Positions 20,930 through 47,503 of a stretch of 64,000 nt of DNA are shown in pieces (position 1 is the stretch's first letter; each line of letters begins with the position of its first letter). The stretch spans positions 64,001 to 128,000 of the forward strand of contig JBHLQH010000006.1 in the NCBI GenBank assembly GCA_048884965.1. Direction: 5' to 3'. This stretch comes from Candidatus Thorarchaeota archaeon (lineage in GTDB: Archaea; Asgardarchaeota; Thorarchaeia; Thorarchaeales; Thorarchaeaceae). The notes below the pieces were generated by a model. It saw only the letters and a program-made list of their open reading frames with translations. It did no database searches and was not told the DNA's origin. Both the position numbers and the translations under genes were made by a program.

Positions 20930-21964
20930 ATGAATAGTGAAGAGAGAGAAGTTAGCAAGCTCAAAGCGTATTTCTTGGAACTACGTGCACCTTTTCTTAC
21001 GGCATCAATTTCACCTGTGTTACTTGGGACGGCAATAGCTTGGGCATTGACAGGTATCTTTCTAATTGATGTGTTTCTCCTGACATTGATCGCAGGCGTA
21101 TGCCTTCACATTGGTGCAAATGTATCAAATGACTACTTCGATCACACCACAGATAATACGGGCTCAGACGACATTAACACGGAGTTCGTTCGGCCCTTTA
21201 CAGGTGGAAGCAGGATGATACAGTTGGGGTATCTCTCACCTAGGGAGGTCTTGATTGAAGCATTCGTTTTCTTCGGTATTGCAGGAGCTATTGGTGTCTA
21301 CCTTGCGTTTACACGAGGATTCCTGATTTTGGTTCTTGGAATCATAGGTGCTGGCTCCGGATTCTTCTATACCGCCCCACCTTTCAGATTTGTAAAGAGG
21401 GGTATTGGAGAAGTCTTCATAGGTCTGAATTTTGGAGTTCTCATGACTTTTGGTTCATACTATGTTCAGGCATTGGATATTGCTTTGGAACCCATTCTTG
21501 CATCGGTGCCCACTGCACTTCTTATTGCAGCTGTCCTGTATATCAATGAGTTTCCTGATTTTATTGCAGATCGGGACTCTGGCAAAAGAACCATTGTTGT
21601 AAGACTTGGACGGGCTAGGGCCGCTAAAGGATATGCATTGATCATCGCCATTACTTTTTCATGGATAGTTATTTGTGTGCTTATGCAACTTATTTCATAT
21701 GAGTCCCTTCTTGCTCTTACACTTCTACCCATTGGATATGTTGGGGTGCGTACTGCCCTAAAAGAATATGAAACGCCTAATCGGATGGTCCCAGCAAATG
21801 CTGCGACCGTGTTACTACACCTCTTGATAACGTTGTATCTCACGTCTGCATACATCTTGAAGGGATTCATGGTGGATTTTCTCATACTCATTGTTGCTGG
21901 AGTCATCATGCTACTAATCTGCTTCACCCAATACAGGACACTTATTCGCCCGCCTCCAGCTTAG
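20930..21964 (+). CDS. menA: 1,4-dihydroxy-2-naphthoate polyprenyltransferase (UbiA superfamily)
   Basis: LRAPFLTAS, NVSNDYFD, GGSR, YTAPP, GIGE, NEFPD-ADRDSGKRTIVVRLG. Confidence 0.88.
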   Translation: MNSEEREVSKLKAYFLELRAPFLTASISPVLLGTAIAWALTGIFLIDVFLLTLIAGVCLHIGANVSNDYFDHTTDNTGSDDINTEFVRPFTGGSRMIQLGYLSPREVLIEAFVFFGIAGAIGVYLAFTRGFLILVLGIIGAGSGFFYTAPPFRFVKRGIGEVFIGLNFGVLMTFGSYYVQALDIALEPILASVPTALLIAAVLYINEFPDFIADRDSGKRTIVVRLGRARAAKGYALIIAITFSWIVICVLMQLISYESLLALTLLPIGYVGVRTALKEYETPNRMVPANAATVLLHLLITLYLTSAYILKGFMVDFLILIVAGVIMLLICFTQYRTLIRPPPA

Positions 21965-23743: not shown

Positions 23744-24967
23744 TTATTCATAGATTTCTTCGAGACCATCCCATTCGAAACCCATTGCTTGAGCTACTAA
23801 TACGACCAAGTCCTTGGATAACTTGTTTGACCCTGCACCAGGTAATTGATTGTGCATGAAGTCGACACAAGAGGGACAATGTGACGCTACAACATTCGCA
23901 TTCGTAGCCTCGATGTCCTTGACCTTCAGATCGTTGATCTTAACGGCAAAGTCATTGTCTATTGCTCGGAGAACACCGCCTGAACCACAGCAATAGCTGT
24001 TTCCCTTGTTGTGAGGCAACTCCTCAAATACAACTCCAGGTAGATGTTCGAGAACCTTTCTAGGCTCCTCATAGAAGCCTGCGTTTCGACCTGCATCACA
24101 ACCATCATGATAGGTGACTGTCAAACCAAGGGGAGTGGTGAATTCCAACTTGTTGGCATCAAGGAGTTCCAACAGATACTCGGCACCATATACGATATCA
24201 AAGTCGTGCTCGATACCTAGGAACTCATGATACTCATGTGCCCACATCTTGTAGCATCCGGGGCAATTGGTAACAATCCTCTCAACGCCAAGTTCCTTGT
24301 ATTTCTCGATATTGTGAAGCGCGAATTTCCTTGCTGTTTCAAAATCTCCAGTCATGATCATCGGAGCACCGCAGCACCATTCTTCTTCACCAAGTAGAGT
24401 GAAGTCGACTCCTGCTTTGTCATAGATGAGAGTAGATGCTATTGTTCCCTGTATTGATACACCTTTGAAGGAGGAAGCACAGCCCATGAACAATGCTGTC
24501 TTTGCCTCTTTTCCCTGTAGGTCAAGTACCATGTCCTCGTCAGGGTGCCAGTATGACCAACCCTCAATCCTATCCATCTGAGATTGGCCCTGAATATTGT
24601 TAGTCTTCAGGAGAGTGTCCTTTGCCATCTGCAGCTCCTCTGGCCACATTCCTCTCTTTAGGAAATCATGACGCAGAAGCTGGTAGATCTTGACAAATGG
24701 GATGTCTACTTGACAGATCTCCTCACAACCTCCACATAGAGTACAACCAAAGATGGCGTCCCTGAGACCTTCTAGTCCTTGAGATGGTTTGAGTCGTCCC
24801 TGGATTAGATTCCTGGCAATGACCATCTTGCCCTTGCCAGAGTAACTATCACGCCGCTTGACCTTGTATGTCGGACAAGCTCCATTGCCTACTTGGCAGA
24901 AACTGCATTGAGCGCATGTATAAGGGATATCATGGAGTCCATGTGCTTCGAGTGTTGGGAATCGCAT
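23744..24967 (-). CDS. HdrD/GlpC-like Fe-S protein (2x[4Fe-4S] plus two CCG domains), paralog 1
   Basis: CAQCSFC...CP, CTLCGGCEEIC; CCG1 GC..WCCG..NCPGC; CCG2 HDGC..YCCG..HCPSC. Confidence 0.92.
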   Translation of the reverse strand: MRFPTLEAHGLHDIPYTCAQCSFCQVGNGACPTYKVKRRDSYSGKGKMVIARNLIQGRLKPSQGLEGLRDAIFGCTLCGGCEEICQVDIPFVKIYQLLRHDFLKRGMWPEELQMAKDTLLKTNNIQGQSQMDRIEGWSYWHPDEDMVLDLQGKEAKTALFMGCASSFKGVSIQGTIASTLIYDKAGVDFTLLGEEEWCCGAPMIMTGDFETARKFALHNIEKYKELGVERIVTNCPGCYKMWAHEYHEFLGIEHDFDIVYGAEYLLELLDANKLEFTTPLGLTVTYHDGCDAGRNAGFYEEPRKVLEHLPGVVFEELPHNKGNSYCCGSGGVLRAIDNDFAVKINDLKVKDIEATNANVVASHCPSCVDFMHNQLPGAGSNKLSKDLVVLVAQAMGFEWDGLEEIYE

Positions 24968-25194: not shown

Positions 25195-27135
25195 ATGGGA
25201 CTTAAGAAACGACAAATCGAGAAGCTTGCGGAACTCTTCGGAGATCGGCTCATTACTGAGAAGCACGAGTTAGTCATATTCAACACTGATGTTGGCGCCT
25301 TGCCAAAGCAAGTAGGATATATGATGAACAACAAACCTGATGCGGCAGTACAACCATTGACTCCGGAGGAGATTCAAGCTCTCTACGAAATTGCCAATAA
25401 AGAGAAGATACCTCTCGTTCCACGAGGAGCTGGGACAAGTGGGTATGGTGGTGCCATTCCACGAAAAGGTGGAATCATTGTAGACATTCGCAGGATGAAC
25501 AACATCATCGAGGTGGACAAGGAGAACCTGTCTGTTCTGGTAGAACCTGGACTCTCGTGGTCCAACCTACAGTTCGAGTTGAACCGTCAAGACTTGGATC
25601 TGCGATGCTATCCCTCATCAGGATTGGCTGCAACGATTGGAGGTTGGGTCGCTCAGGGTGGCGATGGTATTGGGTCTCTAAAGTATGGCAACATCAATGA
25701 GAATGTCCTTGAGTTTGAGGTCGTCCTACCAGATGGCAAGATAATCAAGAGTCGCGATACAGATCTCTTCTGTGACACTGAGGGAATACTGGGAATTATC
25801 ACCAAGGTCCGTTTGAAGATCAAGCCCCTTATGCCGCTAAAGGTCATCGTAGCAAGCTTCCCTGAGAACTACCAGATGGTTCTCGCAATGGAGAAGATGC
25901 TTGAGGATGGCCCATTACCTTATACTATCAAGTTTGAAGAATCAAAGTACACAGATCTCAAGAAGAAGGTCTGGGATGCTGATGAGCCCTTCCCGTTCCC
26001 CGTGCACCATGGAACAGTCATGGTCGCATACGAGGGAACAGATGAGGAGATTGAGGAAGGATTCGAGGTAGTTCGACATGTGACTGCAGAGTACAATGGT
26101 GTCGTCTACGATGAGCACGTAGCAGCGCACGAATGGCATGATCGATTCTATCCTATGCGTGTAAAGAAGGCTGGTCCTACCCTAGTTGTCGGACAGGCAT
26201 TCGCACCCCTTGAGAACCTTGAGGCTATTCTCTCTGATTTCCAGTTCGAGCAAGCCTCTGCCCAAGCGGGTATCGATGGATATGTGACCTCAAGATCAGG
26301 GGTAACTATCATGGGCTACTTCCTTGAAGACGAACGCAGAATGTTCTTCATGCTCTCCTGGTCACAAAGCTTTGTCATATTCAAGATCGCTCAACGACAT
26401 GGCGGACATCCCCACGGAATAGGGATCTGGTTCGCCAACTATGCGCCACAATACTTTGGCACACGACGACTGGCAAAGATTAGGGCTGCCAAGCTTCAGT
26501 ATGATAAGAATGAGATCTCGAATCCTGGGAAGATATTCGCATACTGGCTTCCCTTCATTCTTCGTATTGGCAAGTATTTCATGTGGATCGGTTATGACCT
26601 CTTCCGGAATGGATGGGGACGAATCGCTCCAGTGCTTTTGAAATGGCTACAGAATGTACCTCCTCTGAAGTGGATGCTCCGCTGGGGTCGTGGCCATAGT
26701 CCATGGCCTGTACAGTTCGGTCTTGGATGTTGTATGATGGACGGTGCGGCAGCTGTTGCCTCACGTTGGGACATTGAACGATTTGGAATGCTTCCACTCT
26801 TCGGTCCACGTCAGGCTGATGTGCTGTGGGTATCAGGGTCTCTGACCAAGAAGATGGCTCCACGACTTCGCAGAATCTATGAGCAGATGCCTGAGCCCAA
26901 GTATGTCATTAGCTTCGGTCAATGCGCCGCAAGTGGTGGCATGTTCTGGGATGGCTATTCTCTGATGACCCCGCCAGACAAGGTAGTGCCCGTTGATGTG
27001 TATCTGCCCGGTTGCCCACCAAAACCTGTAGATTTCGTACGAGCGCATTTGATATTACAAAACAAGATTCGCGCCGGTACAACGCACTGGCAGAGGAAGT
27101 ACGAGAATCAAGATGCAATGGGGATGATGCAATGA
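25195..27135 (+). CDS. nuoB: Fusion of a VAO/PCMH-type FAD-binding oxidoreductase (GlcD/D-LDH-like fold) with complex I subunit NuoB
   Basis: Residues 1-450: PRGAGTSGYGGA, VEPG, YPSS..ATIGGW, TEGILGIIT, NPGK. Residues ~497-630: SPWPVQFGLGCC, RWDIERFG, PRQADV, YEQMPEPKYVISFGQCAASGG, VDVYLPGCPP. One uninterrupted ORF. Confidence 0.92.
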   Translation: MGLKKRQIEKLAELFGDRLITEKHELVIFNTDVGALPKQVGYMMNNKPDAAVQPLTPEEIQALYEIANKEKIPLVPRGAGTSGYGGAIPRKGGIIVDIRRMNNIIEVDKENLSVLVEPGLSWSNLQFELNRQDLDLRCYPSSGLAATIGGWVAQGGDGIGSLKYGNINENVLEFEVVLPDGKIIKSRDTDLFCDTEGILGIITKVRLKIKPLMPLKVIVASFPENYQMVLAMEKMLEDGPLPYTIKFEESKYTDLKKKVWDADEPFPFPVHHGTVMVAYEGTDEEIEEGFEVVRHVTAEYNGVVYDEHVAAHEWHDRFYPMRVKKAGPTLVVGQAFAPLENLEAILSDFQFEQASAQAGIDGYVTSRSGVTIMGYFLEDERRMFFMLSWSQSFVIFKIAQRHGGHPHGIGIWFANYAPQYFGTRRLAKIRAAKLQYDKNEISNPGKIFAYWLPFILRIGKYFMWIGYDLFRNGWGRIAPVLLKWLQNVPPLKWMLRWGRGHSPWPVQFGLGCCMMDGAAAVASRWDIERFGMLPLFGPRQADVLWVSGSLTKKMAPRLRRIYEQMPEPKYVISFGQCAASGGMFWDGYSLMTPPDKVVPVDVYLPGCPPKPVDFVRAHLILQNKIRAGTTHWQRKYENQDAMGMMQ

Positions 27136-27692
27136 GTCGACGGTTGAACGAGGACGCAGACAGGTACTGCATGTTCTGGCTTGGTATCATGATGATGACT
27201 GCCTACTATGCAGAGTTCATCATCAAGCCCACAGTTGGGTTGATTACCTTGGGATTTGGCAACCTCGTACCTCTCCTTGGTGGTCCACTAATCATTGTTG
27301 CCGCATTCTTTGGGTATTTCGCCCCTGAGGCAAGGAGTAGGAGAGAAAAAATGCGAAAGAATACATCTTTGGCTGTAGCGATTTTCGTTGCTCTCATGTA
27401 CATGATTTTCTCATTTGTTGTATATCCTTGGGAGATGGCTGATGTTGTGTGGTATTCATTTTGGGGTATTGGCTCTGCTATCGTAACCGCAGGTGGAGCC
27501 GCGATGATCCGAATAACCACCGCTGATGAAGCATACACACCTGGTATCATGGATGTCAGTAAGCTGCATTACGGACCTCCACCCGCAGAACCTGAGGTCG
27601 AGATCGAAGCTATAACTGCAGAATCTTCTGACGAATCCAAAGAAAAATCTGAAGAGGAAATATCAGTAGCTCCAACTGAAGCTACTGAGTGA
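27132..27692 (+). CDS. Hypothetical ~4-TM membrane protein with acidic tail, translationally coupled to the FAD-NuoB fusion
   Basis: ATG 27132 overlaps the fusion stop (ATGA); four hydrophobic segments and an E-rich C-terminus. Confidence 0.7.
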   Translation: MSRRLNEDADRYCMFWLGIMMMTAYYAEFIIKPTVGLITLGFGNLVPLLGGPLIIVAAFFGYFAPEARSRREKMRKNTSLAVAIFVALMYMIFSFVVYPWEMADVVWYSFWGIGSAIVTAGGAAMIRITTADEAYTPGIMDVSKLHYGPPPAEPEVEIEAITAESSDESKEKSEEEISVAPTEATE

Positions 27693-28418: not shown

Positions 28419-28853
28419 ATGAGGTTATTCGTGGACTTCGTACCGGTATTAGTATGGGCACTACTTGCCATTGTGCTTGTAGTTGTGATGCTTTTGGCTT
28501 CATGGGTCTTGCGACCGCATGTTCTCCAGAATTCGGAGAAGCTATCATCATATGAGTGTGGTGAGGATCCAATTGGAGTAGCAAGGATATCTTACCCGTA
28601 CAACTACCTGGTATACACCATTCTATTTGTTGTGATTGATGTGATGGGTGCATTCCTATGGTTGCTGGCGGCATCTACACTAAGACTGGAAGCGATGATA
28701 GTTTGGCAGACTCTGATATTTGTCTTGATCATCATGGGCGGAATAGGTTTCGCGATGAAGCTGTTGCCACAAGCATCTCTCGATGGCAAAGAGACACTCG
28801 AGTTGTATCGTGAAACCAAGAAAGCTCGGGAGGCGACTCAATCCCATCATTAA
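28419..28853 (+). CDS. nuoA: Complex I-like subunit A
   Basis: EKLSSYECGEDP loop and 3 TM helices; FVVIDV. Confidence 0.92.
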   Translation: MRLFVDFVPVLVWALLAIVLVVVMLLASWVLRPHVLQNSEKLSSYECGEDPIGVARISYPYNYLVYTILFVVIDVMGAFLWLLAASTLRLEAMIVWQTLIFVLIIMGGIGFAMKLLPQASLDGKETLELYRETKKAREATQSHH

Positions 28854-28860
28854 GAGGTGA

Positions 28861-29502
28861 ATGATCATGCAAGAATTAGATCCATTCCTCCAACTCTTTG
28901 AGCAAGTAGAATTCTTACTCATTGCAGGCATAGTAATTGTTCTTGGCTACCTTGCACTAGAACACAAGGACATAGTCTACGCTGCTTTCTTCTTTGGTTT
29001 CATGGCAAGTATTGTTGCGGGTTTCTTCTTACTACTTGACGCACCTTACATTGCCGGTATGCAGATTGCTGTTTATACAGGTGGCATCAGTGCATTGATT
29101 ATCTTTGGCGTTCTGCTACTTCCTCGTGCGCAAGACACAAGCCTAGAGATTTTCGCATCTCCCAGTAAACGACGAATCGGTATGCTTGCAGCTGCATTCG
29201 TGATGGCATTCTCTGGTGGCCTTGCGCTTGCATTCCCATGGCCTTCTGTGATACCTGAAGGTATACCGGAGTTCTCTCAGAGCCTACAAGGTCTAGCAGA
29301 ATGGCTTTGGCAAGAACATGGTCTCTATGTGCAGATTATTGCATTGATTATCCTTACTACCCTCGTTGGTTCACTTGCCCTCCTTCAGATGGATAAGGGA
29401 GAGGCATTGAAGGGAGTCACCGCTGAATTCGGGATTGAAGCAGAGCCGGAGCCTGAGACCGATGAATACTCTGATGAAGAAATAAAGGAGGCTTCGAACT
29501 AA
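28861..29502 (+). CDS. nuoJ: Complex I-like subunit J
   Basis: DIVYAA, LDAPYIAGMQIAVYTGGI; 5 TM helices. Confidence 0.9.
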   Translation: MIMQELDPFLQLFEQVEFLLIAGIVIVLGYLALEHKDIVYAAFFFGFMASIVAGFFLLLDAPYIAGMQIAVYTGGISALIIFGVLLLPRAQDTSLEIFASPSKRRIGMLAAAFVMAFSGGLALAFPWPSVIPEGIPEFSQSLQGLAEWLWQEHGLYVQIIALIILTTLVGSLALLQMDKGEALKGVTAEFGIEAEPEPETDEYSDEEIKEASN

Positions 29503-29813
29503 TGGTCCCGCTAACATGGTATCTTGTCGTCGCCTTCATCCTGATTGGTCTTGGAGCGTATGGGATGATGGTCAAGCGGAACCTCATCCGAATTCTGATA
29601 GCTGCTGAGATTATGGGCAATGGCGTTAATGTTGCGCTCGTTTCGTTGGCTGTCTATGGCGGGTACTTCTCATACACCCCACAGGGTCTCATTATGTTGA
29701 TTATCTCGGTAGCGGCTGCTCATACCGCTTTAGCCCTTGTTCTAATGCTAATGTACAACCGTCGCTATGGTACGGTTGACTTAGGAACACCACTACAACA
29801 GGAGGTGTCCTAG
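29502..29813 (+). CDS. nuoK: Complex I-like subunit K
   Basis: IGLGAYG..KRNLIRILIAAEIM; 3 TM helices. Confidence 0.92.
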   Translation: MVPLTWYLVVAFILIGLGAYGMMVKRNLIRILIAAEIMGNGVNVALVSLAVYGGYFSYTPQGLIMLIISVAAAHTALALVLMLMYNRRYGTVDLGTPLQQEVS

Positions 29814-29814
29814 A

Positions 29815-30324
29815 ATGGGTCCGGAAGATCTAGTTCGGAAGTTCAATTCGAAGTTTCCTGAGATAGAAGCCAATGTCCAGGACAGTACTCATGTCGAGTT
29901 CACTGTGCCAAAAGGTAAGATACGTGATCTAGTAAATCTTGTAGATGAGACGTTTCCTATGGTTCTTCCTGAAACAGTCTTTGGTGTTGATCTTGGTGAT
30001 GATAAATATCAGATCAACTATATGTTCTGGTCTAGAGATAGTCGTTTGATAACTCAACTAAGAGTCAATCTGGATGGTCCAACACCATCTGTTGATTCTG
30101 TAAGCGATATCTTCCCAGCATTCGAATGGCATGAGCGTGAAACACATGAGATGTTTGGGATTATGTTCAATGGTCATCCTGACCTTCGACCACTTCTTTT
30201 ACCTGATGAGTTGGTTGGTCAGTACCCACTCCGTAAAAGTTTCCAAACAGATCGAAGTCGAGAAGACGAATCAGGTCTCGTGGTCAAAAAGCCACGCCCT
30301 GATGCTGGAGGTGGCAGTGAATGA
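29815..30324 (+). CDS. nuoC: Complex I-like subunit C
   Basis: SVSDIFPAFEWHERETHEMFGIMFNGHPDLRPLLLP...PLRK. Confidence 0.93.
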   Translation: MGPEDLVRKFNSKFPEIEANVQDSTHVEFTVPKGKIRDLVNLVDETFPMVLPETVFGVDLGDDKYQINYMFWSRDSRLITQLRVNLDGPTPSVDSVSDIFPAFEWHERETHEMFGIMFNGHPDLRPLLLPDELVGQYPLRKSFQTDRSREDESGLVVKKPRPDAGGGSE

Positions 30325-31457
30325 GCCCTGACATTGTTGATGAATCAGTAGATATCTGGTTTGGGCCACAGCATGTATCCGCACATGGATGGGCTGCAAA
30401 ACTCAAGCTAGTTGGCGACTTTATCGTAGAATGCGATCCACATGCAGGATATTTCCACAGGTCTGCAGAGAAGTGTTTGGAGTATCGAAACTTCCGCCAA
30501 GGCTCACTGATCCTTGAGCGACTGTGTATGCTTGAAGCATTCCTTTCCGAATATCCCTACCTTAGTGCAGTCGAGCAAATTGCTGGTCTTGAAGTCCCTG
30601 AACGTGCTAAGGTCATCCGGACCATCATGATGGAGGCGAGCAGGATTCACTCCTTCCAGTTCTGGTGGGGTCAGTTCTCAGCTGAGATGGGATTCTTTGC
30701 TATGACCCTTTGGCCATGGGTGGACCGAGAATACTTCCTGGATGCCTTTGAGGAACTGACTGGTTCCCGTCACGCTCCAAGCTTTGGGACTCCTGGCGGC
30801 GTCAGATTTGACTTTACTGAGAAATCTGTGAAGAAATTGGAGAAAGCAATTGATGTGTTGGAGAGCAATCTGCCAAAGTTCGAGGACATGCTTCTGGGAA
30901 GTCCAATCTTTAGGATGCGAACAGAAGGAGTCGCCCGTTATAGTGGCAAACAGGCGCTTCGATGGGGATTCTCAGGGCCAAACATTAAGGCTTGCGGAAT
31001 ACCCATGGATTTGAGGAAGGATTTCCCTGATCCAAATCTCGCTTACAATATGGCTGATTGGGAAGTTCCTATTGTGGAGAATCCTGAGTATCCCGGTGAA
31101 AGCGATGCATTCGACAGGATGCTCCAGAGATTCAAAGAGGTCAAGACCTCTGTCAGCATCATTAAGCAGCTGTTGCCCCAGGTACCTGAGGGCGAGATCG
31201 TAGATCCAAAGGCTAGAGCAAAAGCCAATCGCCTCCCTGAAGGAGAAGCCTATGGCCGAGTTGAGGGAACTCGTGGAATCATTTCTCTCTGGTTGAAGAC
31301 ACTGGATAAAGCACAGACCCCCTATCGGGCGAAGATACGCGGACCGTGCCTACAATCATACTATTCACTCAAGCATCTGGTACCTAGTGCCAGATTCGCT
31401 GATTTCATTGTAATATTTGGAAGCCTTGATCCATATCCAGGATGGTGGGATAGATGA
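30321..31457 (+). CDS. nuoD: Complex I-like subunit D (no NiFe-binding CxxC pairs)
   Basis: GPQHVSAHG, GYFHRSAEK, ERLCM, VPERA, EGTRG, PYRAKIRGP, C-terminal SLDPYPGWWDR. Confidence 0.92.
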   Translation: MSPDIVDESVDIWFGPQHVSAHGWAAKLKLVGDFIVECDPHAGYFHRSAEKCLEYRNFRQGSLILERLCMLEAFLSEYPYLSAVEQIAGLEVPERAKVIRTIMMEASRIHSFQFWWGQFSAEMGFFAMTLWPWVDREYFLDAFEELTGSRHAPSFGTPGGVRFDFTEKSVKKLEKAIDVLESNLPKFEDMLLGSPIFRMRTEGVARYSGKQALRWGFSGPNIKACGIPMDLRKDFPDPNLAYNMADWEVPIVENPEYPGESDAFDRMLQRFKEVKTSVSIIKQLLPQVPEGEIVDPKARAKANRLPEGEAYGRVEGTRGIISLWLKTLDKAQTPYRAKIRGPCLQSYYSLKHLVPSARFADFIVIFGSLDPYPGWWDR

Positions 31458-32599
31458 TAGGAGGTGCAGTGACATTGCAATTCGAATGGTTCTTTGACTG
31501 GCTTGCTGGAATTCCTACGTGGCTTTTCGATGTTATATATTGGATAATTGACATCATAATGGGAATCATCTTTTGGATAGAGGATCTAGTCAGATTTCTC
31601 TGGATTCTCATTGTCGACAACTTCTTCTTCCTACTCAAGGCAGTCCTATTCCCAGGATTGATTTTCGTTGTAATGGGACTCATCTATTTCGTTTGGTTTA
31701 CACGAAAACTCTGGGGTCGCATTCAGATGCGAAGAGGTCCAATGCACTTGGGTAAGTATGGTGGCGTGCAACTCTTTGCTGATGCTATCAAGCTCATCTC
31801 AAAGGAAACCATTATCCCCACCAACGCTCGAAGATGGATGTACCGCTTCCTTCCTTCGCTACTACTCATAGTCGTACTCATTCCATTTGCATTCATTCCA
31901 TGGGATACGACATGGTTCATCGCTGACCTTTCAGTAAGCCTTGTACTGGTGTTCGCATTCCTTGCTGCAGTGCCTGTCATTGCTCTTCTAGCGGGTTGGA
32001 TTAGTGGTTCGAAGTATTCTCTTATCGGAGGATTTAGGGCCGCCAACAATCAATTCGCTGCGGAGATTCCAATGATCATCTCATCAATCGGACCAGCGAT
32101 GCTTGCAGGATCTCTAAGTGTGATGGGAATTGCACTAGCTCAAAGTTCTGTCTGGTTCATTTTCTTGCTCCCGATTGGATTTGCTACATTCCTTACTGCA
32201 TCCATCGTATCTGTCGGTGTATTCCCCTTTGATGCACCTGTAGCGGACTCTGAGATCATCTTCGGATGGAGAACAGAGTTCTCAGGCATTTACTTCACTT
32301 TGACCTACTTTGCTGAATTCGCTGAGCAGATGCTATATTCAGCTTTGATGGTGACCTTCTTCTTTGGAGGGTTCTATGGTATTCCGTGGCTCCCTGGAGC
32401 AGTGAATTTCATCATCAAGTGGTTGATTATGCTTTTCGTCTTCGTGACTGTGAGTTCTTCATTCCACAGACTGAGGCAGGATCAGATAGTCAAATACTGC
32501 TGGAAGTATCTGATGCCGCTAGCAATACTGAACGTCATATTGGCGATGCTCGCCATCGTCTATGTGCCAGGATTGGCACCACTCTTGATAGGAGGTTAG
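31454..32599 (+). CDS. nuoH: Complex I-like subunit H
   Basis: RKLWGRIQMRRGP, QLFADAIKLISKE, SKYSLIGG-RA, PFD...TEFSG, RLRQDQ. Confidence 0.93.
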   Translation: MIGGAVTLQFEWFFDWLAGIPTWLFDVIYWIIDIIMGIIFWIEDLVRFLWILIVDNFFFLLKAVLFPGLIFVVMGLIYFVWFTRKLWGRIQMRRGPMHLGKYGGVQLFADAIKLISKETIIPTNARRWMYRFLPSLLLIVVLIPFAFIPWDTTWFIADLSVSLVLVFAFLAAVPVIALLAGWISGSKYSLIGGFRAANNQFAAEIPMIISSIGPAMLAGSLSVMGIALAQSSVWFIFLLPIGFATFLTASIVSVGVFPFDAPVADSEIIFGWRTEFSGIYFTLTYFAEFAEQMLYSALMVTFFFGGFYGIPWLPGAVNFIIKWLIMLFVFVTVSSSFHRLRQDQIVKYCWKYLMPLAILNVILAMLAIVYVPGLAPLLIGG

Positions 32600-32603
32600 A
32601 AAG

Positions 32604-33035
32604 ATGGGGTTCCTAACTAATCTGGGTGAAATCTTCACGATTCTGAAACATATCTTTAGACAAATATTCAAGAGACCCTTCACAAGCCTCTATCCATTCG
32701 AGGATAGGATCTATCCCGAGAGGACTCGTGGTCGTCATATCCATGTCAGGCACGCATGTACTGCATGCAGTCAATGCGTGAGAGCATGTCCTGTTGTCGC
32801 TATTACCATCGACAAGGAGGACAAAATGTATGAGAAAGATGCAGCATTATACTTCGATTACACCCGCTGTATCTTCTGTGGGCTTTGTGTTGATGCCTGC
32901 AGATTCGATGCACTCTTCCACACACCTGTCGTTGATCTCTCTGAAGGGGACAGGAATGATCTGCTATATGGCCCTGAGAAGATGAGCACTCTCGACAGAG
33001 AACCACTCAAGTGGAGAGGAAGGAGGTTCAGGTAA
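32604..33035 (+). CDS. nuoI: Complex I-like subunit I (2x[4Fe-4S])
   Basis: TSLYP...RTRGRH, CTACSQCVRACP, CIFCGLCVDAC. Confidence 0.93.
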   Translation: MGFLTNLGEIFTILKHIFRQIFKRPFTSLYPFEDRIYPERTRGRHIHVRHACTACSQCVRACPVVAITIDKEDKMYEKDAALYFDYTRCIFCGLCVDACRFDALFHTPVVDLSEGDRNDLLYGPEKMSTLDREPLKWRGRRFR

Positions 33036-34589
33036 ATGCAGGTGATATTCGAAATCCCATTCATGGCTATTTCGCTAGCCGTGTTGTTCATTGGTGGACT
33101 TCTCATCTACCTCTTGAAAGGTAGACTTGAGAAGAGTGCTGGAAAGATTGCCGTAATCTTCTCTGGTATTGCTGTGGCGTTGATGATTCCACCATTCTAT
33201 CGTGTGATGTTCGAAGAGCATGCATACAACATCGCTGAAGAGACCCTGCACTGGTCGAATATCTTGGGTGCGTTCGGTCTTCGTTTGGATGGGATAGCCT
33301 TTCCAATAACCTTCGCAGTGGTTGTGCTTGGGTTCCTGTCTGTTGTCTATGCCGTAGGATACACCTCCCACGAGCACAACAAGCCAACCTTCTTTGCGAA
33401 TCAGTTGTTCTTCCTTATGGGAATGCAATGGGTAACTCTCGCAACGAACCTTATCGAGTTCTTCATTGCGTGGGAGCTCATGTTGGTTCCTTCATACTTC
33501 CTGATCCTGTTCTGGGGCCTACCCGAGACCCGCAAACGAACTGCGCTTAAGTTCTGGCTATACACTCAGAGCGGTGCAGTCTGTATCCTCATTGGATTTG
33601 GCCTGCTTTACTTCCTAAGTGGAGCGACCTCCTTCGAGCTCGCAGTTATTCAGGGTATGATCGCTTCATACCTTGGAGCTTCAGATCTATTGAAGATCAT
33701 CTTCATTCTGTTGGCAGCTGGATTCTTGGTCAAGATGGCAGTCTTCCCGATTCACTGGTGGCTTCCACCCGTTCATGCTGAAGCACCTACGCCAATCTCA
33801 GTGCTCCTATCAGGTGCAATGATCGAGACCGGTGCCTATGCTCTCGTCCGATTTGGGACTATTACGCTTGGTCCTGCGGCTGCGGATCTTTCAGTCTATG
33901 TAGCGGCTATCGGAGTCATCACCATGTTCTATGGTGGCTTCATGGCGCTAGTGCAGAAGGATATCAAGCGGCTCCTTGCCTACTCATCTGTAAGCCAGAT
34001 GGGCTATGTGCTCTTTGCCCTTGGAGTATTCTCCGTCTATGGAGTATCAGGAGGTCTCTTCCATCTGATCAACCATGCATTCTCCAAGGGACTACTGTTT
34101 ATGGCCGCAGGGACCGTGATGCATCAAACAGGCATACGAAACATCGACAAGTTAGGCGGTCTTTCAAACAAGATGCCTATCACTGCTTTCATGGCTGCCA
34201 TAGGTGCTATGAGTATCGCAGGTAGTCCTCCACTCTCGGGATTCGCGAGTGAATGGATGATGTTCCTTGGTGGATTCCAAGCCGCATCGCCGCCTGGTAC
34301 GGGACTCATCGTGCAACCAACGATGCTCATCCTTTCGATACTTGCTGTTTCAAGCTCAATAATGAGTGCTGGCTATATGTTACGATTCCTGTGGAAGGTC
34401 TTCCTAGGACCAAATCCACAAGACCTCGAAGAGGTACAAGAAGGGCCAAGGTCCATGACAATTCCAATGATTATCCTTGGATTCCTCATCGTGTTCTTCG
34501 GAATCTTCCCTGGCCTAGCGTTAGATATCATCGTGCCCGCAGTGGACGCAATTCCGAACATCATACCCTTCGAATTCCATGCTCCATGA
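33036..34589 (+). CDS. nuoM: Additional NuoM-like antiporter-like subunit (M')
   Basis: LRLDGI, FFIAWELMLVPSYFLI, KMAVFPIHWWLP-VHAEAPTP-SVLLSG, DIKRLLAYSSVSQMG, SGFASE. No NuoL-type C-terminal arm. Confidence 0.82.
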   Translation: MQVIFEIPFMAISLAVLFIGGLLIYLLKGRLEKSAGKIAVIFSGIAVALMIPPFYRVMFEEHAYNIAEETLHWSNILGAFGLRLDGIAFPITFAVVVLGFLSVVYAVGYTSHEHNKPTFFANQLFFLMGMQWVTLATNLIEFFIAWELMLVPSYFLILFWGLPETRKRTALKFWLYTQSGAVCILIGFGLLYFLSGATSFELAVIQGMIASYLGASDLLKIIFILLAAGFLVKMAVFPIHWWLPPVHAEAPTPISVLLSGAMIETGAYALVRFGTITLGPAAADLSVYVAAIGVITMFYGGFMALVQKDIKRLLAYSSVSQMGYVLFALGVFSVYGVSGGLFHLINHAFSKGLLFMAAGTVMHQTGIRNIDKLGGLSNKMPITAFMAAIGAMSIAGSPPLSGFASEWMMFLGGFQAASPPGTGLIVQPTMLILSILAVSSSIMSAGYMLRFLWKVFLGPNPQDLEEVQEGPRSMTIPMIILGFLIVFFGIFPGLALDIIVPAVDAIPNIIPFEFHAP

Positions 34590-34600
34590 GGTGATCAAAG

Positions 34601-36904
34601 ATGCTATTCGGTTTACCCTACTATCTAATCCTCGTAATCCCCTTAGCAGGTTCATTGTTGGTTCCAGTCATTGGCAAGTTCAATGAGAAACTCAGAGACT
34701 GGACCCCAGCCATCTTCATGGGCATAGCAATGATCCTGAGCTGGTCACTTCTCACAGAGGTCAACAATCCGACTACTGCTACTTCGTGGGTTTGGATTGA
34801 CTATCTTGGACTGAACTTCGAGGTACTGCTTGATCCACTTTCGGTCATTATGGCTGTGCTTGCGAGCACATTGTGTTTCCTCATCTATGTCTACTCAACA
34901 GAGTACATGGCTCATGAGGGTGACCGTGATAGGTTCTTCTTCCTCATGCTTGCATTCGGTGGTGGCATGCTCACTCTCGTGCTGAGCAACAACCTGCTGA
35001 TAGCGTTCATTGGGTGGGAGATTATGGGCTTCTGTTCCTATGGCTTGATTGGCTTCTGGAATGACAAACGCAACGCTCCTGAGGTCGAGCCTGACCCAAT
35101 CGTGTACAAGAACCCTCTCCTCCAATTCGAGACCGAGGGGCAGTACAACACGCACTCCGGTACCAAGGCGTTCATCGTCACTCGTATCGGTGATGCATTC
35201 ATGTTGGGTGGAATACTCCTCCTCTTCGCGTTCACTGGTACCTTCTCATTCTCTGAGATGGCTGCTGATGCACAGGGCTGGTGGGCCACAATGGCAGGAA
35301 TTGGAATGCTCGTTCCAACCTTCTTGCTTATCTTCATGGGCGCTATCGGAAAGTCTGGACAGGCGCCTTTACAGGTGTGGTTACCGGAGGCCATGGCAGG
35401 TCCGACGTCGGTGTCCGCCCTCATCCACGCTGCAACAATGGTAAAGGCTGGTATCTACATAACAGCTAGATTCCTCCTGACAATGGTCGCAGCTGCTGAA
35501 GAATCCGGAGGTGAAGCTCCCGAACATCTATTCGCTGCCCTTCAACTTCCCGGTGTAGAGGCTATCACATTATTCTTCATCATAGTAGCAGTGATTGGTG
35601 CAATCACGGCTCTCATGACAGCTACAATGGGTCTTGTTTCTAATGAGCTAAAGCAGATTCTTGCATTTTCAACCCTGAGTCAGCTAGGATACATGATGCT
35701 TGGACTTGGCACGGCGGGTCTGATTTACTTCTATGGACACCACTTTGAGGAAGCATTCTTATCTAGCGTTCTGCATGTAATCTCCCATGGGGCCTTCAAG
35801 GCACTTCTCTTCTTGGCTTCAGGTGGCGTCATCCATGCTGTGCATACCAAGTATGTCACAAAGATGGGTGGACTTGGCAAGTACATGAAGAAGACTTTGG
35901 TGGTCATGTGGATTGGTGTTCTTGCTCTGGCTGGTATTTGGCCTCTCTCTGGTTTTTGGTCAAAGGATGGTATAATCGAATGGGCATACGATCTTATGAT
36001 TGTTGAATCCGAGATGCTTGCACATGGAACCACCCTATTCCCTGTAGGTTGGATTGTGTTTCTCTTCGCAATTCTTGCTGCTGCATGTACGATTTTCTAC
36101 AGCATTAGGATGATGGGTTTGACATTCTATGGCCCAAGCGAATACGACAAAGAGGGACATGATTCAACTCATTCATCGGGACATGATTCATCATATCCAG
36201 AGGAAATCGATACTCTACGCGAGGACGATGAATCAAATGAACACCATGCTGACGATCATCATGCAACACCACATGATCCAGGTCTCGCCATGATGATTCC
36301 ACTGTATATCCTAGCGACGTTCACGATAGTGGCAATGTTTGTTTATCCCTTCATTGAGAACATAATATTGGGAACGGAACATGGGTTTACATATTTCGCA
36401 GTCGATGTTTTCTTGTATAAGATAACTGTTGGTTATGTACCCTTTTGGATAACTATTGGAGCACTACTACTAGGTGGAATTCCAGGTTTTCTATGGTACA
36501 TCAAAGGAGCTGATAGTCCTAATACCTTCGTGCCCGAAACCGGTATCCGCAGGAAGATCTACAACTTCCTCCGTCATCGCTGGTACATCAACGAGTTCTA
36601 CTATTGGGTGCTCAACAAGTTCCTGAACTTTGCTGAATGGTGGAGAGTAAGGATTGACAACAACATCATCGATGGTATCGACTTCAAGTCTGCTGACACT
36701 GCGAAGGGCATCTCCAGACGTGTGCGCTGGTTCGATGATCACATCGTAGACGGTTTCGCAGAAGGTGTTTCTACCTATAGTGTTGGAGCATCAGAATCTG
36801 GACAGGCGATACAATCAGGACGAATCAATGACTATGTATCAGTGATCATCTTCGGATTTGGCTTGATGATTCTTGTGATACTCATAACCTTGGGGGTGAT
36901 CTAA
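34601..36904 (+). CDS. nuoL: Complex I-like subunit L with insertions and an extended transverse helix
   Basis: LDPLS, GWEIMG-CSY-LIGFW, KAFIVTRIGD, GKSGQ-PL-VWLPEAMAGPT-VSALIHAATMV, GFWSKD, QSGRINDY. Confidence 0.95.
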   Translation: MLFGLPYYLILVIPLAGSLLVPVIGKFNEKLRDWTPAIFMGIAMILSWSLLTEVNNPTTATSWVWIDYLGLNFEVLLDPLSVIMAVLASTLCFLIYVYSTEYMAHEGDRDRFFFLMLAFGGGMLTLVLSNNLLIAFIGWEIMGFCSYGLIGFWNDKRNAPEVEPDPIVYKNPLLQFETEGQYNTHSGTKAFIVTRIGDAFMLGGILLLFAFTGTFSFSEMAADAQGWWATMAGIGMLVPTFLLIFMGAIGKSGQAPLQVWLPEAMAGPTSVSALIHAATMVKAGIYITARFLLTMVAAAEESGGEAPEHLFAALQLPGVEAITLFFIIVAVIGAITALMTATMGLVSNELKQILAFSTLSQLGYMMLGLGTAGLIYFYGHHFEEAFLSSVLHVISHGAFKALLFLASGGVIHAVHTKYVTKMGGLGKYMKKTLVVMWIGVLALAGIWPLSGFWSKDGIIEWAYDLMIVESEMLAHGTTLFPVGWIVFLFAILAAACTIFYSIRMMGLTFYGPSEYDKEGHDSTHSSGHDSSYPEEIDTLREDDESNEHHADDHHATPHDPGLAMMIPLYILATFTIVAMFVYPFIENIILGTEHGFTYFAVDVFLYKITVGYVPFWITIGALLLGGIPGFLWYIKGADSPNTFVPETGIRRKIYNFLRHRWYINEFYYWVLNKFLNFAEWWRVRIDNNIIDGIDFKSADTAKGISRRVRWFDDHIVDGFAEGVSTYSVGASESGQAIQSGRINDYVSVIIFGFGLMILVILITLGVI

Positions 36905-36905
36905 G

Positions 36906-38462
36906 ATGCAAGTAGACATCGCACAAGCAATCGCATCCATCCTGCCACTAGGTATCTTGCCATTCATGCTGTTCCTACCATTACTTGCAGCATTCGTAGT
37001 ACTCATCCTAGGCGCAAAGCCTGCGAGAATGATCACTCTATTGATCGCACTTGCAGAGATGGGTCTCGCGATAGTACTCGGTCTTGCAATTGATCCCGCA
37101 GTACAACTTGATGATCCCACTGGTGGAGTATTCGGTTGGCAATATACCATTGCCCCACTGACGACTGCTGAGGACGCTCCGCTTCTTCAGATCCTTCTTG
37201 GAGTGGACGGTCTCTCGGTGGTTATGATTATCCTGTCGAACCTTGTCGTGCTCATCGCTGCTATCAGCTCAAATCACATCAAGGAGTCCAAGTCAATGTA
37301 CTACTCCTTCTTCCTGATGCTTCAGTCAGGTCTCCTAGGAGTGTTCATGTCTATTGACCTCTTTAGCTTCTTTGTATTCTGGGAGCTTGTGCTAATTCCG
37401 ATGTTCTTCATCATCGGGAAGTGGGGCGAGGAAGGTGCACAGCACGCAGCCGTCAAGTTCGTCATCTACACACATCTTGGCTCAGCTGTTATGGCGATAT
37501 CGTTCTTTGTCCTGTTCTTCATGGCACCTACGCCGACCTTCAATATGGTAGAACTAAGAGGTATGGGACTCTCACCGGACATCCAGATTGGATTCGCGCT
37601 TGCAGTATTCATGGGTGCAGGTGTGAAGCTTCCTGTCTTCCCCTTGCACAACTGGCTACCGTGGGCGCATGTGAAGGCACCAACACCCGGCTCAGTCATC
37701 TTGGCGGGTATCCTTCTAAAGATGGGTGGCTATGCTTTCATAAGGCTAGGTCTCTGGATGGTTCCTGAAGGCTTTGCCAGATTGAGTATTCCGCTCGCAT
37801 TGCTAGCAGTCTTCACATGTATCTACGCAGCGTTCACTGCTATGGCACAGACTGACATGAAGTCCATGGTGGCGTACACATCCATCAATCACATGGCATG
37901 GGTGTTGCTTGGTGTTGCGGTCGCATCTGTTGGTATCAACAGTGCTGACCCAGTATTGCAGGGAGCTGCAAACATTGCCATTCAAGGGTCGATCTTCATG
38001 ATGTTCTCTCATGGTACTATCATCTCTGTAATGTTTATCATGGCCGGGCAGCTCAAATACGCTGCTGGTACACGTGAGATTCCGAACATCCGGGGTCTGC
38101 TCTCACGAGCACCAAAGATGGCTTCAGTCTTTATTCTCGCATCATTGGCTGCATTTGGACTGCCAGGATTCAGTGGGTTTATCGCTGAAGCGTTGACTCT
38201 GTTCGGTGCAGTGACAATCTACATCTGGGCTGGCCTCATCGGCTTCGGCATCTTTGTCACAGTTGGCTATCTTCTTTGGACGCTCAACAGGATGGTCTTC
38301 AGTGATCCTGACCCCGATAAAGAGATTAACGAGGCTCCATGGAGTGACCTCATCGCTCCTATCCTGATGATGATACCAGTCATACTGCTTGGTATCTGGC
38401 CTGATTTGATCTTAGACTTCACGAGAAGTGTTGTCCTCTTCATGCTAGGAGGTGCTCCCTAG
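36906..38462 (+). CDS. nuoM: Complex I-like subunit M
   Basis: [68 protein letters not shown]. Confidence 0.94.
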   Translation: [518 protein letters not shown]

Positions 38463-39962
38463 ATGCTACAAGCAAATGCTATTCTTGATTTCATCGAAAT
38501 ACTATTGACTCCATTGAGGGACATCCTTGTACAGCTTCCAGCTGAGTGGTATGGTTCCTTACCTGTCCTGACATTGATTGGATTCTCCATAATTGTGTTG
38601 ATCATTGGACTCAGATTCAATCCATTGATCATAAGCATCATTGGAGTCATTGTAGCAATGCTTGAAGTAGCCGCAATGGACCCTCTTGTCTATGGGTCTT
38701 CATTCGGAGGCCTCTTCGTTAGAGATGCCTTCGCTGACTTCTTCATCTATCTAATCCTGATAGTTGCGATCCTGGTGATGCTATCTGCAACTCAGTATGG
38801 TGGTGATAAGGGTCCTTACAACTTCCTATTCCTCATCTCCTTTGCTGGAGCGATCTGGGTTGTCATGGCTACTGACCTCATCGCTTTGTTCTTGGCATGG
38901 GAACTGATGAGCACACCAACCTACATACTTGTAGCTCTAGGACCTGACAGACTTGCACTTGATGGCGCGACCAAGTATTTTGTCATGGGCTTGGTTTCAA
39001 CCATGTTCATGCTCTTTGGTATCGCACTCGTCTTTGGCGTGTGCGGCACTACAGTTCTGACTGAGGTGGGTGTACATGTAGCAGCGATTTGGGCTGCTCC
39101 TGCGACATTAACCACGCAGGCATATACACTCCTCTTGTCCATGGTCCTCTTCATCATCGCCTTCGGATTCAAGGTAGGTATCTTCCCAGGTTGGATGTGG
39201 GTACCTGATACCTATGCTACAGCTGATGGGAGCGTGACCGCATATCTGGCTGGTGCGACAAAGAAGACTGGAGTTAGTGCATTAGCCCGAATACTGATGG
39301 TTGGTTTCATCGTTGCTCGATTGGAGTGGTACTGGCTCATCATCATTGTTGCCATGCTTACGATGGTGATAGGGAACTTCCTTGCATTAGCACAGAAGGA
39401 TATCATGAGAATGCTTGCCTTTTCGAGTATTGCTATGATGGGCTATGTATTCGTAGGGTTTGCCGTTGACACAGCTATAGGACTATCATCAGCCTTCTTC
39501 CTAGCATTCGTTCATGCTATCATGAAAGCAGGAGCATTCATCCTCATCTTTGCGATGTCCATTCGTTTGCAAAAGAGGATTACCTATGAAGAACTAAATG
39601 GGCTTAGTCAACGATATCCAATTGCTGCAGGGTTCCTTGGGATCATCGTCATCTCGTTGATGGGTATACCCTTCACTGCAGGATTCACACCGAAGTTCCT
39701 GCTATTCCTCAGCACTGCAGAGGTAGGCCTATGGTGGCTTGGACTGTTTGCTTTCCTGAATGTGACATTCTCACTTGGCTACTACTTCCGAGTTATACGA
39801 GCGATGTATCTCAGGCCAGCTAGTGATACCAGCACCTTCACTTTGCCTAAGATCCCAATGATCATTGGTGGAGTGTGTGCACTCTCAATGCTTGTACTAT
39901 TTTGGTTCCCAGGACCTATCATAGAGCTAGCGAATGCAGCTGCCGCTCTACTAGTACCATAG
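38463..39962 (+). CDS. nuoN: Complex I-like subunit N
   Basis: DLIALFLAWELMS-P-YIL, KYFVMG, GFKVG-FP--MWVPDTY, RMLAFSSI, GIPFTAGF-PKF, YYFRVI. Confidence 0.93.
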   Translation: MLQANAILDFIEILLTPLRDILVQLPAEWYGSLPVLTLIGFSIIVLIIGLRFNPLIISIIGVIVAMLEVAAMDPLVYGSSFGGLFVRDAFADFFIYLILIVAILVMLSATQYGGDKGPYNFLFLISFAGAIWVVMATDLIALFLAWELMSTPTYILVALGPDRLALDGATKYFVMGLVSTMFMLFGIALVFGVCGTTVLTEVGVHVAAIWAAPATLTTQAYTLLLSMVLFIIAFGFKVGIFPGWMWVPDTYATADGSVTAYLAGATKKTGVSALARILMVGFIVARLEWYWLIIIVAMLTMVIGNFLALAQKDIMRMLAFSSIAMMGYVFVGFAVDTAIGLSSAFFLAFVHAIMKAGAFILIFAMSIRLQKRITYEELNGLSQRYPIAAGFLGIIVISLMGIPFTAGFTPKFLLFLSTAEVGLWWLGLFAFLNVTFSLGYYFRVIRAMYLRPASDTSTFTLPKIPMIIGGVCALSMLVLFWFPGPIIELANAAAALLVP

Positions 39963-40274: not shown

Positions 40275-41666
40275 ATGGTATACTATACTGATTCGCCAAG
40301 AATGAACAAGCGGATGGTGTCAGGTTATTACCTGTTCCTCTGTTTGATTGGTTTCGCCGTTCTTCTAGGACCAACCGGTGCCGGCATTACGATAAATATT
40401 ATCGGAAATGGCGGACGTGATCAGCACGAGATTTCGAGTCCTATGGCAGGAGATGACCCAAGTGACTGTTCAGGCTGTCACTCAAATGAGTACAATAACT
40501 GGAGTACAACTCCTCATGCTACTCATGTGACTGTGGTAAACTCCACACACTATGCGATAGGTTCTCGCAATGTTTCCATGACTCTCTTTAACAGCAGCTG
40601 TGCAGCGTGTCACACATCTGGATACAATGCATCAGCTCCTGCAAGTGAACGGTTTGATGCGTTGGGTGTGAACTGCTTTGCATGTCACAACACAACAGCT
40701 CCATACGTGGACTATAGTGGTGAAGCGTGTGCTCCCTGTCATACAGGAAGCAATCCCGCTCATCCCTACCAGTATGCACCGTGGGAGAACTCAGCTCATG
40801 CGAACTCTCTGACTGACCTCAGAACAAGTAGCCACGCAGGCTCCTCATGTATGCACTGCATGTCAACAGAAGGCTTCATTGACCAAGACGCTGATTTAGA
40901 CGTCGAAGGTGAATACAATGCAGTTTCCTGTCCAGCATGTCACTCCGTGCATGGTGAGTGGTCCGGCGATGGTCCATACATGATCAGAGCCGAAAATGCA
41001 AGCGAACTATGTGGTAACTGCCACACTGGTTCAAGGCATGGCTCATATGATACCTGGATTGGTGGTTCACACAATCTTGCAGGTCTCACATGTATTGACT
41101 GTCACGGCTATGATCTGACAAACACCTCTGACACAGACACTTACTTCTTGAATCATACATTTGTCGTTAAGCCAGATCTTGCATGTGGCCAACCCGACAA
41201 TGGATGTCACGAAGACAATCTTGAGTGGGCTCTAGCACAGCTTGAGACAATTCAGGATGCTTTCGATGCTCTTGTCGAGGAGATTCAGACAGAAGCAGAT
41301 GATCTAGAAGAAATCATTCTAGCTTACAATGCTACTGAGGGTGCTGATTACGAACTAGTAGGTGAGGTAATGGATGTCATTGACGATGTCAGTGGTGTAA
41401 TTACCGCAATGAATGGAGACGGTTCATCAGGATTCCATGATCGTGTTGGTATCTTGGATACACTAAATGGAGCGTATCTTGACCTACTGAATGCCAAGGC
41501 CTACTTCTACGAGAACACACCAGCTGAAACTGTAACTGTCACAGTTACTGAAACCGTAACAGTTCCAGCTCCAAGCGGTATGGACACTCTCGTTCTTGCA
41601 GGTGGTGCAGTTGGCGGTATCGTCATCGGTTTGATCCTAGGACTGCTAGTCGGAAGACGACGCTAA
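40275..41666 (+). CDS. Membrane-anchored extracytoplasmic multiheme cytochrome c (7 CxxCH, 1 CX6CH, 1 CxxCM)
   Basis: Signal/TM segment; CSGCH, CAACH, CFACH, CAPCH, CMHCM, CPACH, CGNCH, CIDCH, CGQPDNGCH; acidic helical region, TV-rich stalk, C-terminal TM ending RRR. Confidence 0.92.
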   Translation: MVYYTDSPRMNKRMVSGYYLFLCLIGFAVLLGPTGAGITINIIGNGGRDQHEISSPMAGDDPSDCSGCHSNEYNNWSTTPHATHVTVVNSTHYAIGSRNVSMTLFNSSCAACHTSGYNASAPASERFDALGVNCFACHNTTAPYVDYSGEACAPCHTGSNPAHPYQYAPWENSAHANSLTDLRTSSHAGSSCMHCMSTEGFIDQDADLDVEGEYNAVSCPACHSVHGEWSGDGPYMIRAENASELCGNCHTGSRHGSYDTWIGGSHNLAGLTCIDCHGYDLTNTSDTDTYFLNHTFVVKPDLACGQPDNGCHEDNLEWALAQLETIQDAFDALVEEIQTEADDLEEIILAYNATEGADYELVGEVMDVIDDVSGVITAMNGDGSSGFHDRVGILDTLNGAYLDLLNAKAYFYENTPAETVTVTVTETVTVPAPSGMDTLVLAGGAVGGIVIGLILGLLVGRRR

Positions 41667-41698
41667 AGGCGATAAACTGGAGAAACTAATGTAAAGGC

Positions 41699-41730
41699 GG
41701 GATGTCTAACATCCCTCCGTATCTTTTTTT
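41699..41730 (+). terminator. Hairpin plus T7 tract after the multiheme cytochrome gene
   Basis: GGGATGT-cta-ACATCCC followed by TTTTTTT. Confidence 0.6.
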
Positions 41731-41839
41731 CTCCCAAAGAGTTCTCCAGTGAATATTGGGTTCTGTCCTATGGGCTTCTATTAGTTTCCGGAATTTTTTA
41801 CCGATATTATATGAACCCGAGAAAGGTGATCTTTCCATA

Positions 41840-46117: not shown

Positions 46118-46126
46118 TCGTAAAAA

Positions 46127-46164
46127 GGGATGATGTCGAAATTAGACATTATCCCCCCTTTTTT
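46127..46164 (+). terminator. Hairpin plus T-tract after ccmF
   Basis: GGGATGATGTC-gaaatta-GACATTATCCC (11 bp, one G:U) followed by CCCTTTTTT. Confidence 0.65.
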
Positions 46165-46293
46165 GTCCATTTGTGAAAATTACTTACGATTCTTTATTTT
46201 ATCCCCTATTTTTGGTTACGCGCTGTACGCAAACCCAACATTCAAGTGTGGGTTTGCTTAATTTTTTTTCAGCTAGAATCGAGGCTGAACTGA

Positions 46294-47502: not shown

Positions 47503-47503
47503 T

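Follow-up and report, generated by a model that had tools for sequence, protein, structure and literature searches.

We studied a 64,000-nt window of a Candidatus Thorarchaeota genome (GCA_048884965.1, contig JBHLQH010000006.1, positions 64,001 to 128,000; "the window" denotes this whole stretch), which carries a complex I-like nuo operon with four antiporter-like subunits, i.e., two NuoM-type subunits (M' and a second M) beside NuoL and NuoN. Such complexes with two M subunits are called 2M in the following. Overall, the operon probably encodes one L-M'-M-N membrane arm within a complex I-like enzyme lacking NuoEFG, which would transfer electrons from ferredoxin to a menaquinone-like carrier and move about 5 H+ per two electrons (H+/2e-). 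That two distinct NuoM-like genes flank nuoL in a tight operon had been stated in a preliminary description of this DNA, and the gene coordinates proved exact, with gaps of 0 to 11 nt. The respective features are:

33036..34589, + strand: nuoM', 517 aa; archaeal-type M with the 14-transmembrane-helix (TM) antiporter fold, matching TIGR01972 (NuoM)
34601..36904, + strand: nuoL, 767 aa; archaeal type with a lengthened lateral helix, matching TIGR01974
36581..36820, + strand: lateral helix (HL) of NuoL, Trp661 to Gln738, 77 residues
36906..38462, + strand: nuoM (second M), 518 aa; canonical type, common to thaumarchaeal M'-L-M-N operons
38463..39962, + strand: nuoN, 499 aa; with E147, K237, K268 and K411

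All four products match PF00361. The best NCBIfam models are TIGR01972 for M' (315 bits; cut-off 264) as well as for the second M (399 bits), TIGR01974 for L (424 bits; cut-off 408) and TIGR01770 for N, whose 268 bits stay under the cut-off of 333. The genes close an operon of the order nuoA-J-K-C-D-H-I-M'-L-M-N (28419-39962, + strand), in which the gaps amount to 0 (I-M'), 11 (M'-L), 1 (L-M) and 0 nt (M-N). A purine-rich, Shine-Dalgarno-like stretch lies ahead of each of the four starts. A sigma-70 promoter scan, a method unsuited to archaea, stayed at chance level. Since M' and M share only 30% identity, the pair is no artefact of duplicated assembly, and one is not a recent copy of the other; a recent duplication of M within Thorarchaeia or Asgard archaea is ruled out by this identity and by the approximately unbiased (AU) test (p below 1e-60). 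All 20 Thorarchaeia loci fetched keep the M'-L-M-N order, as do three further Asgard genomes, and an M' orthologue is present in 23/36 genomes searched from the same family. Furthermore, a second sample of the study yielded contigs that run across I-M'-L as well as from the end of L across M-N. An apparent 71-nt skip at 36596-36668, which rests on a 22-letter side and the loose ends of a divergent contig, was taken as another organism. The host is archaeal, as described before: it belongs to Thorarchaeia, and close M' homologues are named Thorarchaeota.

We evaluated whether M' belongs to the complex. The genome assembly (4.1 Mb, 96% complete) contains four PF00361 genes, all of them inside the nuo operon, and MnhE, the Mrp E subunit, was not found in a genome search. 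M' thus has neither an Mrp nor an Mbh module to join. The complex I core subunits A, B, C, D, H, I, J and K are all present, with NuoB fused and 3 kb upstream. M' is also the best conserved of the four among Thorarchaeia orthologues (mean identity 73%, compared to 70 for L, 67 for M and 59 for N). Its structure model shows a 14-helix NuoM-like fold (predicted local distance difference test score (pLDDT) 90, TM-score 0.91 to mycobacterial NuoM). The two-chain prediction for M'+M reached 0.40 compared to 0.00 for the best control, with at least 93% contact agreement between runs and a partner pLDDT of at least 80; among solved pairs 58/80 reach the respective mark, among mismatched ones 2/110, where values of at most 0.60 cover only 7/80 solved pairs but both mismatches. 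We read it as weak support, which may reflect a mere likeness to the solved L-M and M-N interfaces. The top PDB sequence matches of M' are MrpA, MBS (membrane-bound sulfane-sulfur reductase) MbxH' and MbhH, with MbxH' second-best; its TM12 residue is Glu as in NuoM, where MrpA/D have Lys, and a clade of the Asgard M' and MrpD is rejected (AU p=2e-6). The assignment to the 2M type made in the preliminary description is thereby upheld: there are four subunits, a NuoL helix longer by 26 residues, and no separate Mrp/Mbh module.

As a hallmark of 2M complexes, the literature names a NuoL lateral helix with some 26 inserted residues (10.1101/2021.11.15.468770). Here, the extra length stems from a 26-residue repeat: the motif D..IIDG occurs twice within HL, 26 codons apart (36653 and 36731). 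The NuoL model shows a continuous helix over residues 661-727, at low pLDDT. The helix spans 76-78 residues in all measured M'-L-M-N operons but one (105) and 81 residues in four Chloroflexi L-M-M-N operons. Most three-pump complexes have a shorter helix, with spans of 48-55 in E. coli and Bacillus, in ten Chloroflexi and in seven M'-L-N operons of archaea. For L047 and L069 the span pattern anchored late (69 and 70), and the alignment shows both helices to be long.

Some loci depart from this layout. Locus L057:5876-8176 (genome G047) encodes a NuoL of span 105 with two extra units, yet only four antiporter genes in its operon. Clusters with five antiporter-like genes are found in the L214:10001 region and in L135, and the L214 helix spans 132 residues with near-identical tandem units. 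In L069:3522-9830 (G051), a long-helix L is followed by an unrelated 273-aa open reading frame (ORF) on the opposite strand and then by M and N, such that the fourth subunit was perhaps lost or displaced. L127:7845-11500, from a genome labelled Promethearchaeota, holds an L+M' pair standing alone (helix 79). Many Thorarchaeia genomes carry a second K-L-M-N-like cluster with three antiporters and a short helix (L063-L065, L068), which was not found in the window's genome. None of our statements draws on the unpublished genome G088.

To place the two M subunits, we used trees with Shimodaira-Hasegawa-like (SH-aLRT) supports and AU tests. The first AU series was weak, as its constraints also separate Thorarchaeia from their kin, and our conclusions rest on the later series. 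The second M (36906) belongs to canonical NuoM, within which the second M subunits of all sampled M'-L-M-N operons, this one included, make up one clade (SH-aLRT 99 and 98 for two models). The sampled thaumarchaeal-type M'-L-M-N loci are marine, subsurface and hot-spring ones; they are called thaumarchaeal after the source names of close homologues (Thaumarchaeota or Nitrososphaerales), and one 91% homologue cluster is labelled Dehalococcoidia, probably a mis-binning. Trees in which only one of the two second-M groups, Asgard or thaumarchaeal, joins bacterial NuoM were rejected (AU p=0.0014 and 0.0017, respectively), as was grouping the Thorarchaeia/Asgard second M with the extra M of Chloroflexi (p=2e-4). 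The M' class, in turn, is broad and archaeal and includes the middle subunit of Asgard/Bathyarchaeia group-4 hydrogenases as well as the sole M of M'-L-N operons. Within it, the best trees place the Thorarchaeia M' with the M of Asgard hydrogenase arms and not directly with the thaumarchaeal M' (95, one model), while a single M' clade is not rejected (AU p=0.16).

M' is hence the constant partner of L, and the second M is the part that differs between three- and four-pump relatives, i.e., the subunit gained or lost. This reverses the preliminary description, where M' was taken as the extra subunit. Some three-pump loci nest among four-pump loci in the tree, which suggests a loss of the second M in these lineages. 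The operon adds Thorarchaeia to the archaeal M'-L-M-N 2M lineage already known, which occurs in Thaumarchaeota/Nitrososphaerales as well. The earlier proposal of a possibly independent archaeal complex therefore stands only with regard to the Chloroflexi L-M-M-N type; with respect to the thaumarchaeal second M, ancestry is shared and a separate origin is rejected (AU p=0.0014).

The second M keeps the canonical axis (E160, K241, K272, H329 and E428), and N carries a canonical one, too. M' retains Glu147 (TM5), Lys233 (TM7) and Glu406 (TM12) and has an extra Lys351 on TM11. At TM8 it has Glu for the canonical Lys, as do several M subunits of Asgard hydrogenase arms; M'-type subunits that act as the only M (M'-L-N) carry Gly or Ser at this position. 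Since such sole-M subunits do without the Lys, the TM8 change alone is no mark of a dead channel.

The remaining subunits and the candidate redox partners are encoded upstream:

28419..28853, + strand: nuoA (PF00507), opening the membrane/connecting operon
28861..29813, + strand: nuoJ and nuoK, family profile matches
29815..30324, + strand: nuoC, NCBIfam profile match
30321..31457, + strand: nuoD, NCBIfam match; RLCM replaces RxDY, nearest solved chain MbxL of MBS
31454..32599, + strand: nuoH, NCBIfam profile match
32604..33035, + strand: nuoI, two 4Fe-4S motifs
25195..27135, + strand: FAD protein of the GlcD/D-lactate dehydrogenase (D-LDH) fold fused to NuoB; all four N2 cysteines, the genome's only Nuo-type NuoB
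27132..27692, + strand: small membrane protein outside the known families, its place right after the fusion gene being conserved; longest ORF from 27012
23744..24967, - strand: HdrD/GlcF-like protein, 2x4Fe-4S and two CCG domains; in divergent orientation to the fusion gene
20930..21964, + strand: menA-like prenyltransferase; in most relatives its gene is a neighbour of the NuoB fusion

The operon is without NuoEFG, and a profile search did not find NuoF in the genome. NuoD lacks the CxxC pairs that ligate NiFe and is thus not the large subunit of a group 4 [NiFe] hydrogenase; it keeps both loop His and, at the site of Asp139, an acidic residue. Its C-terminal motif is DPY, i.e., the second MbxL Cys is absent, and both RLCM and DPY are near-invariant in Thorarchaeia. 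The frame of the NuoB fusion is open over 614-719 codons in 24/24 Thorarchaeia genomes with the same NuoB, and NuoB is unfused in other Asgard 2M loci; the fusion is specific to Thorarchaeia. Glu at TM8 of M' and Met for the quinone Tyr of NuoD are further traits particular to the Thorarchaeia complex. In one Thorarchaeia genome with M'-L-M-N (G011), the flavoprotein ends at 467 aa (L043:14225-15628), and NuoB was not found there with the query used. In the fused flavoenzyme, the Glu/His pattern by which LctD and D-LDH bind metal is lost (PHGIG for EHGIG). The HdrD/GlcF-like CCG protein scores best with TfrB. The menA-like gene exceeds the TIGR00751 cut-off and in 16/22 genomes is no more than 6.5 kb away from the NuoB fusion; here it forms a cluster with geranylgeranyl reductase and polyprenyl synthase genes (17339-21964). 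CdhA is present in the genome. Directly behind nuoN, a membrane-anchored 7-CxxCH cytochrome c is followed by ccmF and ccmE/C/B/A-like genes (40275-49609), and three more GlcD-like + CCG (HdrD/GlcF-like) pairs are found at 49691-60854, two of them with hydrophobic C-terminal tails.

Taken together, we picture the enzyme as a mosaic of an archaeal L+M' pair, common to the arms of Asgard/Bathyarchaeia group-4 hydrogenases, and canonical-type NuoM and NuoN. The four antiporter subunits very probably co-assemble in a single arm, for which the order L-M'-M-N is rather likely; the NuoL helix would strap this arm and be longer by one subunit width (26 residues, about 39 Å). Ferredoxin would donate at NuoI, from where electrons may pass via N2 on the fused NuoB to the menaquinone-like carrier. 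We lean slightly towards an extra proton added by the fourth subunit, i.e., about 5 instead of 4 H+ would be moved per two electrons. At 150 mV, textbook potentials pay for 5.0 H+/2e- from ferredoxin to menaquinone, for 3.3 with NADH and for 1.5 with lactate. Because ferredoxin to menaquinone covers five protons, a forward ferredoxin:quinone pump is favoured, if only tentatively as far as its direction and redox partners are concerned.

Several observations weigh against this picture. In M', the TM8 Lys is replaced by Glu264 (codon 33825-33827) in all Thorarchaeia copies. The quinone Tyr of NuoD is changed to Met (RLCM for RxDY), next to one Cys of the MbxL/hydrogenase type, and its nearest solved kin is MbxL, a subunit of a sulfane-sulfur reductase. 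The menaquinone ring-synthesis genes MenD and MqnA were not found in the genome, such that the ring would need salvage or another synthesis, and neither were COX1 and NrfD. Long NuoL helices also occur with at most three antiporter genes (L123 with 77, L158 with 82, L207 with 81, L196 with 79, and also L069 and L127). A long helix is therefore no proof of a built-in fourth subunit; it is necessary but not sufficient for a four-pump arm, and we reject it as a sufficient pump counter. Finally, we know of no 2M complex with a solved structure or a measured stoichiometry.

With regard to electron flow, two rivals were weighed. The same four-pump arm could run in reverse, i.e., about five inward ions would drive electrons from quinol to ferredoxin and feed the Wood-Ljungdahl pathway, with the quinol coming from the flavoenzyme fusion and the HdrD/GlcF-like protein that partners it, or else from the paralogous pairs. 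This role has been proposed for the 2M complex of Nitrospira (PMC6606698). CdhA fits it, as do the several GlcD+CCG pairs, which could load the quinone pool, and the D-lactate-dehydrogenase fold of the fused head, since such donors are unable to drive five protons forward. However, the flavoenzyme has lost the LctD/D-LDH metal-binding pattern, and reverse flow needs another source of proton-motive force, for which no terminal oxidase or NrfD-type reductase was found in the genome; we consider it unlikely. Less likely still is a non-quinone acceptor, where ferredoxin would reduce a disulfide or polysulfide via the HdrD-like partner or an MBS-like NuoD site. The head-less Fpo plus HdrD of Methanomassiliicoccales is a parallel for a ferredoxin-to-disulfide route, and the Tyr to Met change, the MbxL-type Cys, the best PDB match of NuoD (6u8y_L), the TfrB-like score of the divergent CCG protein and the lack of MenD and MqnA hits point the same way. 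This is countered by the absent second MbxL cysteine (DPY), both quinone-loop His and the acidic residue kept in NuoD, the menA-like gene linked to the NuoB fusion, and a ferredoxin-to-heterodisulfide span that pays only for about 4 H+ at 150 mV (textbook potentials). A more far-reaching version, possible but doubtful, combines the known 2M arm with the covalently attached flavoenzyme, the HdrD-like protein that accompanies it, an altered acceptor site and a fourth channel of reversed charge into a functionally new respiratory machine, which would couple an unusual redox pair (a non-quinone acceptor, or quinol to ferredoxin) to at least five ions. If true, archaeal 2M complexes would record the joining of a hydrogenase-type L+M' half to a bacterial-type M in a TACK/Asgard ancestor.

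The other rivals concern the arm itself. Four genes might yield no extra proton, either because M and M' alternate in two three-pump forms or because M' serves as a spacer or Na+ conduit. The TM8 change in all Thorarchaeia M' and the long helices found elsewhere with three pump genes are in line with this; but an M' with Gly or Ser at TM8 serves as the sole M of M'-L-N operons, and alternating forms fit neither the 77-residue helix, which is too long for a single M, nor the translationally coupled operon with one L and one N, which renders this option improbable. That Asgard archaea acquired the fourth subunit apart from all described 2M clades would agree with the placement of the Thorarchaeia M' beside Asgard hydrogenase arms and with the C-D-H-I genes between K and M', but is very improbable given one second-M clade across Asgard archaea and Thaumarchaeota, the same M'-L-M-N order with helix lengths of 77-78, and a single M' clade that is not rejected. 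Finally, M' would hardly belong to a separately assembling Mrp or Mbh module: its top PDB matches hint at such a module, but the genome search found neither MnhE nor a further antiporter gene, M' does not group with MrpD, and its TM12 residue is the Glu of NuoM.

With respect to published systems, the preliminary description knew 2M complexes from bacteria only; archaeal ones have been reported for heterotrophic marine Thaumarchaeota (PMC7300363) as well as for Nitrososphaerales and Ca. Angelarchaeales (PMC9038741), and the four-pump design itself is not new. Aylward and Santoro 2020 (PMC7300363) label the thaumarchaeal complex 'clade 2', and the marine loci sampled here probably stem from these heterotrophic marine Thaumarchaeota. 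Within our partial coverage of the literature, we found no paper on a 2M complex or the NuoB fusion of Thorarchaeia. Within the same coverage, papers on Asgard archaea describe shorter, hydrogenase-type arms with at most three antiporters; the archaeal 2M design is extended here to anaerobic Asgard archaea. The M' orthologues imply membrane electron transport in many Thorarchaeia. Close relatives with M'-L-N (helix 51-52) and with M'-L-M-N (77-78) lend themselves to a paired comparison of whether a further antiporter subunit brings a further proton, which matters for understanding how coupling works in complex I.

Compared to the 2M complexes of Thaumarchaeota and Nitrososphaerales, the Thorarchaeia operon is alike in having two M subunits and no NuoEFG; the loci named after these groups also show the M'-L-M-N order, their helix spans 78 residues, and their second M falls in the same clade. 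They differ in gene order (A-J-K-C-D-H-I-M'-L-M-N in Thorarchaeia, where NuoB has left the operon as part of a flavoenzyme fusion), in the TM8 residue of M' (Glu in Thorarchaeia, Gly in Thaumarchaeota) and in the host, which is anaerobic and without a COX1 hit here. The Chloroflexi complex also combines a fourth antiporter subunit with a lengthened NuoL helix (81, four Chloroflexota loci), but its gene order is nuoL-M-M-N (PMC7117926) and both of its M copies are bacterial NuoM; the Nitrospira complex represents clade 3 (PMC6606698). The L and middle subunits of Asgard/Bathyarchaeia group-4 [NiFe]-hydrogenases, whose arms carry the full HL helix (PMC11291895; 10.1101/2024.07.04.601786), are close kin of the Thorarchaeia L and M' (M' up to 46% identity). 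These arms, however, have three antiporters, a span of 50-52 and NiFe CxxC ligands in the large subunit, which are absent here. With MBS of Pyrococcus (PDB 6U8Y), the complex shares the RxC motif and the best solved NuoD match (6u8y_L, E 5e-61); in contrast to MBS, it is without Mrp-type Na+ module genes and the second MbxL Cys and is built on true NuoL, NuoM and NuoN subunits with a lateral helix.

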